Position numbers and translations under genes: made by a program
Source: Shigella phage ESh24
Length of the DNA stretch: 64,000 nt
Direction: 5' to 3' (one strand)
Sequence record: ON528734
Part shown: in pieces, positions 40,056 to 42,711 of the stretch
Position numbering within the stretch: the first letter of the stretch is position 1
Layout of the letters: every line of letters starts with the position of its first letter
The notes under the pieces: model-generated
Told to the model about the DNA's origin: nothing
Databases searched by the model: none
Seen by the model: the letters and a program-made list of their open reading frames with translations, nothing else

Positions 40056-41084
40056 ATGTCATCAATACCTTGGATTGATAATGAGTTTGCATACCGTGCA
40101 TTAGCTCATTTACCTAAATTCACACAAGTAAATAATAGTTCAACTTTTAAATTGCGGTTTAGATGCCCAGTGTGTGGAGATTCAAAAACCGACCAGAATA
40201 AAGCTCGTGGATGGTATTATGGTGATAATAATGAAGGAAACATTCATTGTTATAACTGTAACTATCATGCACCAATCGGAATATATTTAAAGGAGTTTGA
40301 ACCTGATTTATATCGTGAGTATATCTTTGAAATAAGAAAAGAAAAAGGTAAAAGTCGTCCAGTAGAAAAACCTAAAGAACTTCCTAAACAACCTGAGAAG
40401 AAAATAATTAAATCTCTTCCGTCATGTGTTCGATTAGATAAACTGGCGGAAGACCATCCAATTATAAAATATGTAAAAGCTCGTTGTATTCCAAAGGATA
40501 AATGGAAATATCTTTGGTTTACAACCGAATGGCCTAAATTAGTTAATAGCATAGCACCGGGAACATATAAAAAGGAAATTTCTGAGCCTCGTCTTGTTAT
40601 TCCAATTTATAATGCTAATGGAAAAGCTGAGTCTTTTCAAGGACGTGCATTAAAGAAAGATGCTCCTCAAAAATATATCACCATCAAAGCTTATCCTGAG
40701 GCAACAAAAATCTATGGAGTCGAACGAGTTAAAGATGGTGATGTATATGTTCTAGAAGGACCTATAGATTCGCTTTTTATTGAAAATGGTATAGCTATTA
40801 CGGGTGGTCAATTAGACCTAGAAATTGTTCCATTTAAAGATAGACGTGTGTGGGTTTTAGATAATGAACCTCGTCATCCTGACACTATTAAGCGAATGAC
40901 TAAATTAGTTGATGCAGGAGAAAGGGTTATGTTTTGGGATAAATCTCCCTGGAAATCAAAAGATGTTAATGATATGATTAGAAAGGAAGGTGCAACCCCT
41001 GAACAAATTATGGAATATATGAAAAATAATATTGCCCAGGGGTTAATGGCTAAAATGCGGTTATCTAAATATGCTAAGATTTAA
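40056..41084 (+). CDS. 61: DNA primase gp61
   Basis: 342 aa; zinc ribbon CPVCG...CYNC, Toprim EGPIDSLF. Confidence 0.95.
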   Translation: MSSIPWIDNEFAYRALAHLPKFTQVNNSSTFKLRFRCPVCGDSKTDQNKARGWYYGDNNEGNIHCYNCNYHAPIGIYLKEFEPDLYREYIFEIRKEKGKSRPVEKPKELPKQPEKKIIKSLPSCVRLDKLAEDHPIIKYVKARCIPKDKWKYLWFTTEWPKLVNSIAPGTYKKEISEPRLVIPIYNANGKAESFQGRALKKDAPQKYITIKAYPEATKIYGVERVKDGDVYVLEGPIDSLFIENGIAITGGQLDLEIVPFKDRRVWVLDNEPRHPDTIKRMTKLVDAGERVMFWDKSPWKSKDVNDMIRKEGATPEQIMEYMKNNIAQGLMAKMRLSKYAKI

Positions 41085-41281
41085 ATTAACCCAACTAAAG
41101 CAAATGCTAAATCTACGAATGTATCAAGAGTAACTACTGGAATACTAACGCCATGAGCAATAGCAACTGGCGATAAAACAAAATTCCAAAGTAAAATTCC
41201 TATCATAGCAGAAATAGTAAAAGCTATACGTTTCTTATTACCTTTTATGGCATTAACAAGTGCCATTAATTTTTGTACCAT
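41081..41281 (-). CDS. antisense small membrane protein (66 aa), convergent with gene 61
   Basis: Only intergenic minus-strand ORF; strong RBS AAAGGAGG 6 nt before ATG on minus strand; two hydrophobic helices. Confidence 0.6.
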   Translation of the reverse strand: MVQKLMALVNAIKGNKKRIAFTISAMIGILLWNFVLSPVAIAHGVSIPVVTLDTFVDLAFALVGLI

Positions 41282-41316
41282 ATGTCCTCCTTTAAATTAA
41301 TATTTATCATAAATTT

Positions 41317-41348
41317 GTTTACTTTCTCAGCTTGTTATGGTATTATAA
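41317..41348 (+). promoter_or_regulatory. T4-type early promoter upstream of nuclease-like ORF
   Basis: GTTTAC (41317-41322) and TGGTATTAT -10. Confidence 0.65.
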
Positions 41349-41371
41349 AATAAATTGCTGAGGATGATATA

Positions 41372-41932
41372 ATGATTAATAAAATTGTGCATGAAATGGC
41401 TTTAAACGGAGATTCATATAAAATATCTTCCGTAGTTGAAAATTTCATACTTAATAAAGTAAAAGAATATTTCACTGATTGTTCAGTTAGTTATCAAGAA
41501 AAAATGGTTTTAACCGATGATACCGAAAAATCAAATAATTTGTTTTGCTCTAATTTTATAACTAAGAAGCGTACTAGAAGATTTGATATTGTTATTTCTC
41601 GCAACGGTAAAAAGCATATAATTGAAATTAAACACCAAGTTGGTGGAGGTACAGCTATTGATTCGGTTGGAATATATTTAGAAGATAAAGAGAAATTAAA
41701 AGAATACACAAAAACTGAAAACCCTGTGTCATTGATGATATTAGATTTTTTGCCATGCGGATATTATCCACGTAATAAATGGACAAAAAGAGAATCATTT
41801 ACTGATAATCCAACTATCCAAGCAAGATTTAATGAATATGCTAAATCACAAAACGTGTTAGTATTACTATCAAATACATATGATGAAGAATTATATAATT
41901 CGTTTTTTGCTGCAATAAATGAGAGAATATAA
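41372..41932 (+). CDS. PD-(D/E)xK nuclease-like protein (186 aa), translationally coupled to dam
   Basis: Motif [17 protein letters not shown] (D-x12-E-x-K on predicted strands); stop TAA shares A with dam ATG (TAATG). Confidence 0.55.
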
Positions 41933-42711
41933 TGCTAGGAGCTATTGCGTATACAGGTAATAAACAGTCATTATTACCTGAACTTAAGTCTCACTTTCCA
42001 AAATATGACAGATTCGTGGATTTATTTTGCGGAGGTTTATCAGTATCTTTGAATGTCGATGGTCCTGTATTGGCTAATGATATTCAAGAACCAATTATTG
42101 AAATGTATAAACGTCTTATTAATGTATCATGGGATGACGTATTAAAAGTAATAAAGCAATATAAACTATCAAAAACATCAAAAGAAGAGTTTTTGAAATT
42201 ACGTGAAGATTATAATAAAACTAGAGATCCTCTTTTACTTTATGTTCTTCATTTTCACGGGTTTAGTAATATGATTCGTATAAACGATAAAGGAAATTTT
42301 ACTACTCCGTTTGGAAAAAGAACTATAAACAAAAATAGTGAAAAACGCTTTAATCACTTTAAACAAAATTGTAATAAAATAATCTTTAGTTCATTGCATT
42401 TTAAAGATGTTAAAATTTTAGACGGCGATTTTGTATATGTAGATCCTCCATATCTCATAACAGTTGCTGATTATAATAAATTTTGGTCAGAAGACGAAGA
42501 AAAAGACCTTTTAAATCTTTTAGACTCTTTAAATGATAGAGGAATAAAATTTGGGCTGTCGAATGTTTTAGAGCATCACGGAAAGGAAAACACTCTTCTT
42601 AAAGAATGGTCTAAAAAATATAATGTTAAGCATCTTAATAAAAAATACGTCTTTAACATATATCATTCCAAAGAAAAGAATGGAACTGATGAAGTATATA
42701 TTTTTAATTAA
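41932..42711 (+). CDS. dam: DNA adenine (GATC) methyltransferase
   Basis: 259 aa; SAM motif FCGGLS and catalytic DPPY; matches T-even Dam. Confidence 0.93.

Follow-up and report, generated by a model that had tools for sequence, protein, structure and literature searches.

Known GATC systems and the ESh24 locus

The DpnII system of Streptococcus pneumoniae (R.DpnII and the Dam-family DpnM; PF04556) consists of an endonuclease of the PD-(D/E)xK type and a GATC adenine methylase of the D12 class. The DpnII endonuclease is blocked by methylation (PMC12707154). In the window, by which we mean the whole stretch of 64,000 nucleotides (nt) analyzed here from the Tequatrovirus (T4-like) Shigella phage ESh24 (ON528734), a likewise composed pair is predicted from an open reading frame (ORF) for a protein of 186 amino acids (aa) and the dam gene that follows it. 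The best sequence-profile matches of the 186-aa protein were the DpnII and type II restriction endonuclease (REase) models, over the catalytic core, although every phage score stayed below the Pfam cutoff and only positions ~143-235 of the 278 in the DpnII profile were covered, the N-terminal half being missing. The phage locus further differs from the DpnII system in its gene order, nuclease then methylase with a stop/start overlap, and in its carrier, a virulent phage with hydroxymethylcytosine (hmC) DNA rather than a bacterium; the GATC specificity ascribed to the phage enzyme derives from its Dam partner.

Three other systems offer points of comparison. Chlorovirus PBCV-1 carries R.CviAI/M.CviAI, a restriction-modification (R-M) pair acting on GATC, borne by a lytic virus and used against other DNA. 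The feature shared with the phage locus would be a lytic virus with its own endonuclease and a cognate adenine methylase; the chlorovirus enzymes degrade unmethylated host DNA, whereas the hosts of the phages considered here are already Dam-methylated, and the target must differ. To the type IIP enzymes MunI and EcoRI, the phage nuclease showed no detectable sequence kinship (hhalign probability of 0.2% against EcoRI), MunI was not at Foldseek's top rank, and the phage nuclease is paired with Dam (GATC) instead of a methylase for an AATT core. The Dams of T4 and T2, to which the window Dam is 98-99% identical (Pfam MethyltransfD12, E 4.9e-51), have served for decades as models of DNA methyltransferases, treated as solitary and, to our knowledge, with no established benefit to the phage. 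The T4 Dam is solitary through a 539-bp deletion, whereas about 85% of dam-bearing Tequatrovirus records have the nuclease gene upstream.

Our analysis led us to read the nuclease gene and dam as a compact, mobile, type II R-M-like cassette present in a minority of T4-like phages, a composite reading whose mechanism we infer and to which we assign a probability of about 0.5. The part of it that concerns the protein is considerably firmer: the 186-aa product very probably has a PD-(D/E)xK nuclease fold and a functional tie to Dam. Most dam-bearing relatives among the T-even phages, T2 included, carry this conserved restriction-enzyme-like gene coupled to dam, which suggests that the T-even Dam began as half of an R-M pair and recasts it as one member of a mobile R-M-like unit. 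The nuclease would represent a new, very small REase family, and the cassette would be one of few R-M cassettes in a strictly lytic bacteriophage, in an unusual setting that combines a virulent hmC phage with Dam+ hosts. A literature search on the nuclease gene, the cassette, the neighboring dam.1, R-M systems borne by T-even phages, and GATC avoidance in T4 retrieved no paper describing them.

A predicted PD-(D/E)xK nuclease upstream of dam

A reading of the DNA made earlier from the letters alone (hereafter, the sequence-only reading) had singled out the 186-aa ORF (Table 1) for a D-x12-E-x-K arrangement (D72, E85, and K87 in RRFD72...E85-I-K87) and had proposed a PD-(D/E)xK nuclease. The ORF and its motif were found as described, and the assignment was borne out by structural modeling. 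An AlphaFold2 model, computed from an alignment of seven homologs (48-98% identity), reached a predicted local distance difference test (pLDDT) score of 79 and a predicted template modeling (pTM) score of 0.77 and displayed an alpha/beta core with a restriction-endonuclease-like fold. Every match of this model in a Foldseek search of the PDB was a PD-(D/E)xK nuclease. The model places E23 in a predicted helix (residues 15-33), D72 in a strand (66-77), and both E85 and K87 in a second strand (80-88), and all four residues were invariant in a nine-sequence alignment reaching down to 29% identity, as were H88, Q89, and the segment G93-T-A-I-D-S98. The 186-aa protein is thus modeled as a PD-(D/E)xK restriction-endonuclease fold in which the putative catalytic set is intact and invariant.

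The ratio of nonsynonymous to synonymous substitution rates (dN/dS, NG86) of the 186-aa gene was 0.13-0.19 at 55-63% amino acid identity with saturated synonymous sites, as compared with ~0.09 for dam, and a length of 186-227 aa was retained across all diverged lineages. The 186-aa ORF is a real gene under purifying selection, not a chance ORF.

Sequence profiles placed the protein near type II enzymes. Four of the nine family members matched the Pfam DpnII profile (PF04556, 278 positions) at an E value of 0.005 or lower, always at positions ~143-235, with bit scores of 16.8 for the window protein and 22.5 for the best member (P0009), the gathering cutoff of 23 not being reached. The PADLOC model REase_II ('Type II restriction enzyme') was matched at an E value of 8.3e-5. 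In PHROGs, the protein belongs to family 8706, which is listed there without a function, and the gene is labeled 'putative DpnII restriction endonuclease' in the record of phage Shinka and hypothetical in the other records examined. A sequence search of the PDB returned no match for the single protein or for the family profile even at an E value of 10 or lower, and a scan of IMG/VR returned only two loci, both already known. MutH-like, Hjc-like, and winged-helix DpnI-like identities were considered and rejected, none of these being among the top structural matches.

Coupling of the nuclease gene to dam

The sequence-only reading had also noted that the nuclease gene and dam overlap in TAATG, which was confirmed: the nuclease stop codon TAA (41930-41932) and the dam start codon ATG (41932-41934) share base 41932. 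Across lineages, the corresponding stop-start overlaps measured 1, 1, 1, 0, 4, 7, 20, and 35 nt. A D12 methylase lies directly 3' of the nuclease gene in the Klebsiella phage KPV15 (Jiaodavirus) and in the diverged loci that we designate L004, L005, L007-9, L010, and L011; in locus L006, the Dam neighbor was confirmed after translation of the downstream ORF. All family members with a readable context are encoded directly upstream of a Dam-family methylase, an arrangement that extends over Tequatrovirus, Jiaodavirus, and six metagenomic lineages and over at least four genomic contexts. The pair is located between dam.1 and gene 56 in the window, between the primase gene and dam.1 in L011, between denB and ndd in KPV15, that is, at a different genome site, and ahead of an rIIA-like gene in L005. 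Comparison of these loci indicates that the two genes are adjacent, co-inherited as a unit, and inserted at different sites in different phages.

An early promoter had been assigned to the 186-aa ORF from the letters alone. The candidate consists of a -35 element GTTTAC (41317-41322), an 18-nt spacer, and an extended -10 element TGgTATTAT ending at 41346. By itself this call would not stand, as a scan of the AT-rich window with the early-promoter consensus yielded 13 sites against 13.3 expected, i.e., the chance level. The call regains support because an equivalent element, GTTTAC(A/T)-17/18-TGnTAtaaT, occupies the same position, 25-30 nt before the nuclease start codon, in seven of eight diverged loci, even though their flanks cannot be aligned. 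Taken together, the proposed coupling of nuclease and dam was upheld, in that the pair, usually overlapping and usually behind an early-type promoter, is conserved across the lineages and contexts found.

The identities of the nuclease and of Dam to their window counterparts fell together from locus to locus (63/70, 60/75, 57/71, 48/64, 42/62, 33/55, and 32/53%, respectively), with the nuclease diverging faster than Dam.

Presence, absence, and decay among T4-like phages

The surrounding 2-kb region is 97-98% identical in many phages of E. coli, Shigella, Yersinia, and Salmonella. In an even sample of 60 of the 503 Tequatrovirus records that match the region, the full cassette was present in ~29% (T2 included), dam alone in ~5% (T4 and G8), and neither gene in ~64%, in which the match stops at about window position 41292; one sampled record, KarlGJung, showed a different partial deletion. 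Phage RB27 exemplifies the cassette-less state, as its primase gene and the 66-aa gene are followed directly by gene 56, and homology with the window breaks after CCTCCTT (41292) and resumes before ATTGCTT (42712). Judged from these alignments, what is truly polymorphic is the presence of the entire nuclease-dam cassette, which phages like RB27 lack altogether.

The sequence-only reading, recalling that T4 has dam directly after gene 61, had taken the extra genes for an insertion relative to T4. Neither point survived the alignment with T4. The two genes are separated in T4 by a 309-bp gap in which the 66-aa ORF is intact and the nuclease gene is reduced to its last 27 codons, and the direction of change is reversed, T4 having lost 539 bp (window 41310-41848) between two ATCA repeats, including the promoter and the first 159 nuclease codons. 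From this alignment, T4 is a deletion derivative, not the ancestral state, and its solitary Dam is a decayed state. The T2 allele of the nuclease gene (locus L013, 2020-2060) lacks 1 nt of a T-run close to its 3' end, encodes 181 aa ending in NSFLLQ*, and has lost the overlap, a 13-nt gap preceding dam. The T4 remnant (locus L002, 3127-3202) shares this 1-nt deletion, which implies that the T4 deletion arose in a T2-like version of the cassette. In the record G4500, the nuclease gene is split by a frameshift, with dam possibly kept. The dam-only genomes thus comprise at least two different deletions (T4 and KarlGJung) in addition to the frameshift allele, and these comparisons indicate that the nuclease was independently lost or disrupted in T4, KarlGJung, and G4500, and possibly in T2. 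The T2 dam entry of 1988 (GenBank M22342, positions 1-640 examined) includes the nuclease region and annotates dam alone; in that entry, the nuclease frame does not open until position 190 (145 aa), a discrepancy that may reflect either a sequencing mistake of the time or a true difference.

In the opposite direction, no genome with the nuclease alone was found among ~148 Tequatrovirus records with a full-length nuclease gene and eight diverged lineages. The whole region is spanned by 148 records, and the full-length nuclease gene is likewise present in 148 Tequatrovirus records (154 less six of Klebsiella phage); at identity thresholds of at least 90% for Dam and at least 95% for the nuclease, ~181 and ~153 Tequatrovirus records were counted, respectively. 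As homolog searches found few relatives, this test of whether the nuclease ever occurs without dam rests on ~148 close copies and eight diverged lineages. Decay is asymmetric: methylase-only derivatives arise repeatedly, and endonuclease-only derivatives were never seen.

The frequent loss of the nuclease with retention of dam, the C-terminal frameshift allele of T2, the ~64% of relatives that live without either gene, and a length of 186 aa that falls far short of the 278-position DpnII profile could all be expected of an inert or decaying restriction-enzyme relic, kept for the promoter or ribosome loading site of dam or as a DNA-binding regulator of dam. We consider this very improbable, since a dN/dS of 0.13-0.19, measured where synonymous sites are saturated, denotes selection on the protein itself, the E/D/E/K set and its adjoining motif are invariant down to 29% identity, and a length of 186-227 aa is retained in every diverged lineage.

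The sharply polymorphic presence of the cassette and its defined boundaries also invite comparison with the homing endonucleases of T-even phages, such as SegF, which are likewise optional nucleases beside a conserved gene, in the same neighborhood, and polymorphic among close relatives. The protein could be a free-standing homing-type endonuclease that cuts a specific site in nuclease-less alleles (e.g., in or near dam) and spreads, like T4 SegF at gene 56, through recombinational repair, with Dam as its landing site or cargo. The neighborhood is a hotspot for such genes, as shown by segF next to gene 56 in T4 and by an endonuclease gene between dam and 56 in IME537; segF likewise overlaps its neighbor gene 56, and frequent decay of the nuclease resembles the life cycle of homing endonucleases. 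Nonetheless, the nuclease gene and dam are present or absent jointly, most genomes lacking both, and the linkage to Dam holds down to ~30% identity and over at least four genomic contexts. SegF-type enzymes have a GIY-YIG or HNH fold, in contrast to the predicted PD-(D/E)xK fold of the phage nuclease, which is always linked to dam over distant lineages and loci, with dam coming and going along with it. No match to any homing-endonuclease family was found for the 186-aa protein in Pfam, PHROG, or NCBIfam, its best matches being type II REases, and its gene is under long-term purifying selection. Homing is, therefore, an unlikely explanation in our view. The right edge of the cassette is itself a hotspot for homing endonucleases: the inserted gene of IME537 lies at 2072-2722 of locus L016, and segF of T4 (L002, 1107-1781) is situated between gene 56 and soc.

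Solitary Dams also occur outside Tequatrovirus, in the Krischvirus ECD7, the Slopekvirus KP15, and the Aeromonas phage GomatiRiver_11. In a small neighbor-joining tree, these nested among the nuclease-linked Dams (bootstrap support of 92% and 72%), which suggests an old pairing that was lost several times; given the size of the tree, we put forward an old nuclease-dam pairing with several losses only tentatively. Hidden nuclease homologs upstream of these solitary Dams were sought and rejected, the genes there being unrelated (an 81-aa ORF in KP15, a 143-aa ORF in ECD7, and a denV-like gene in GomatiRiver_11).

A proposed restriction-modification-like mode of action

In the R-M-like scheme that we favor, the early promoter would drive a bicistronic nuclease-dam mRNA, and the TAATG overlap would couple translation of the two proteins. 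Dam would methylate GATC in the hmC DNA of the phage, and the nuclease, which is likely to act as a type IIP-like homodimer, would cut GATC-type sites lacking Dam methylation. A specificity for unmethylated GATC is probable, judged from the Dam partner. Enterobacterial hosts are Dam+, and methylated GATC is abundant in their DNA. Since that DNA already carries Dam methylation, it makes an improbable target, and the likely victims would be other incoming or co-infecting DNA, such as that of dam-less Tequatroviruses (~2/3 of the genus) or of other under-methylated phages. Selfishness alone may also account for the persistence of the cassette, and the solitary dam of T4 would be a decayed remnant of the nuclease-dam pair.

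The sequence-only reading had preferred a host-directed or modification-dependent nuclease over a classical R-M pair. In its fuller form, this rival has the nuclease cut Dam-methylated, C-containing host DNA while glucosyl-hmC spares the phage and the phage Dam tops up host methylation. Dam+ hosts do offer abundant methylated GATC, a nuclease expressed early along with Dam, as predicted, would be in the cell while host DNA is still intact, and a methylation-sensitive enzyme would have no obvious host target. T4-like phages, however, already encode the cytosine-specific host-DNA nucleases denA and denB, and the protein consists of one REase core of 186 aa, with no methyl-reading domain comparable to the winged helix of DpnI. 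A mark supplied by the host should, moreover, permit nuclease-only phages, of which there are none among the ~148 Tequatrovirus records and eight diverged lineages, and DpnII, the nearest sequence family, is blocked by methylation (PMC12707154). The recurrence of dam-only genomes without any nuclease-only genome is predicted by an R-M pair and not by a methylation-dependent nuclease in Dam+ hosts. This loss pattern fits a classical methylation-sensitive pair better, and we regard a host-directed or modification-dependent nuclease as quite improbable.

Several observations nevertheless weigh against an R-M-like cassette. On the side of the protein, the similarity to DpnII is sub-threshold and confined to the catalytic core, ~140 N-terminal profile positions being absent; a HMMER profile, run exhaustively against 1.84 billion representative proteins, recovered only 11 relatives, none of them a bacterial R-M homolog; and the AlphaFold2 model rests on a seven-sequence alignment. 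A relationship to EcoRI, whose EAKHQG...GNAIERS we took to resemble the motif of the phage nuclease, was rejected after the family alignment was compared with the PDB-verified EcoRI sequence (hhalign probability of 0.2%), and the resemblance was dropped as evidence. On the side of the pair, co-divergence is imperfect because L004 (69-746) and L005 (141-824) are discordant, with Dams that are 70% identical and nucleases that are only 31% identical, which points to very fast nuclease evolution or to re-pairing by recombination. On the side of the mechanism, Dam+ hosts leave a methylation-sensitive GATC enzyme without an obvious host target, glucosyl-hmC might block the nuclease on T-even DNA, and the nuclease gene, as read from the locus, lies upstream of the methylase gene and is predicted to be expressed early, with no visible mechanism for delaying the nuclease.

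A more specific proposal is that of a weapon between phages, in which an hmC-tolerant nuclease would cut the unmethylated GATC sites of co-infecting or superinfecting dam-less T-even relatives. We regard this as rather unlikely; if true, it would give the T-even Dam a long-missing role as self-protection, and it could help to explain the depletion of GATC, which exceeds that of any other tetranucleotide in cassette-bearing and cassette-less Tequatroviruses alike. GATC was the most depleted of the 256 tetranucleotides in the window (positions 1-64000), with 72 observed versus 204 expected occurrences (observed/expected ratio [O/E], 0.35). Depletion as a signature of the cassette was rejected, since it was equal in RB27 (positions 1-50000; 57 versus 165 expected; O/E, 0.35), which has neither dam nor the nuclease gene. 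Glucosyl-hmC DNA resists most bacterial restriction enzymes, and depletion of GATC is an odd feature in phages with such DNA.

dam.1 and other features of the locus

The coordinates of the locus are collected in Table 1. The plus strand carries, in this order, sp, a 118-aa ORF, 61.1, the primase gene 61, the 186-aa ORF, dam, and gene 56 (dCTPase). In the interval between sp and 61.1, the window has the 118-aa ORF (39531-39887, plus strand), T4 has gene 61.2, and RB27 has the two together.

Table 1. Features of the gene 61-dam region in the ESh24 window
Feature	Coordinates	Strand	Basis or remark
Gene 61, DNA primase	40056..41084	+	Left-hand context
dam.1, 66-aa small membrane protein, PHROG 2024	41081..41281	-	Neighbor of the cassette, not part of it
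Terminator-like hairpin and T-run 3' of gene 61	41247..41276	+	Antisense within the dam.1 coding region; terminator scan
Nuclease-dam cassette	41293..42711	+	Stretch without counterpart in cassette-less Tequatroviruses, e.g., RB27
Late-promoter-like GATAAATA upstream of dam.1	41301..41308	-	Promoter annotation in the Lutter record; putative function
Stretch deleted in T4, 539 bp, flanked by ATCA microhomology	41310..41848	+	Window-T4 alignment
Candidate T4-early-type (sigma-70) promoter of the nuclease-dam operon	41317..41346	+	Consensus scan and positional conservation; putative function
Shine-Dalgarno GAGGA, 7 nt 5' of the nuclease ATG	41360..41364	+	Read from the sequence
Predicted 186-aa PD-(D/E)xK restriction-endonuclease-fold protein, PHROG 8706; putative catalytic E23, D72, E85, K87	41372..41932	+	
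dam, 259-aa D12-class N6-adenine (GATC) DNA methyltransferase	41932..42711	+	Pfam, T4 annotation, tblastn

The minus-strand ORF between gene 61 and the nuclease gene had been described in the sequence-only reading as part of the module, with a near-perfect ribosome-binding site and a stop codon overlapping that of gene 61. Both details were correct: the site is AAAGGAGG (complement of 41286-41293), 4 nt before the ATG, and the two stop codons overlap in TTAA (41081-41084). Membership in the module, in contrast, does not hold, because the ORF is a syntenic T-even gene found whether the cassette is there or not, in all ~500 Tequatrovirus records, including the ~2/3 that lack the nuclease gene and dam, an outcome that the sequence-only reading had itself named as refuting for this ORF. 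The RB27 record notes it as 'dam.1'. The gene is intact in T4 (L002, 3239-3439; T4 17738-17938) and unannotated in NC_000866, while it appears as a hypothetical protein in newer T4 records and in most relatives; the analysis thus restores a conserved gene for a small membrane protein that the T4 reference annotation lacks. Diverged homologs in L009, L010, and L011 keep an LWNf..P.A...G...P.VT core, dN/dS was 0.09-0.30 among close relatives (NG86), and the ratio of nonsynonymous to synonymous differences (pN/pS) between L010 and L009 was 0.17. dam.1 is a genuine gene and more than a chance ORF. Its hydropathy profile contains one clear transmembrane segment (residues ~19-43) and a hydrophobic C-terminus. 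The sequence-only reading had called dam.1 the only intergenic minus-strand gene of the window, which also holds six further mechanically called minus-strand ORFs of at least 50 aa between long plus-strand ORFs.

Upstream of dam.1, the element GATAAATA matches the T4 late consensus TATAAATA at seven of eight positions. The same GATAAATA occurs in T4, AATAAATA occurs in RB27 and L011, and a perfect TATAAATA occurs in L010; an nATAAATA is found in every lineage, ~10-20 nt 5' of the Shine-Dalgarno sequence, in flanks that cannot be aligned. From this conserved element and the promoter annotation in the Lutter record, dam.1 is probably a late gene. The terminator scan detected three sites against 0.4 expected, and the hairpin with its T-run is located ~165 nt past the stop codon of gene 61, antisense to the 5' part of dam.1. 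Early transcripts of gene 61 and late transcripts of dam.1 would converge and overlap. In RB27 (L021, positions 1-50000), dam.1 and 55.7 are the sole annotated genes on the late-direction strand.

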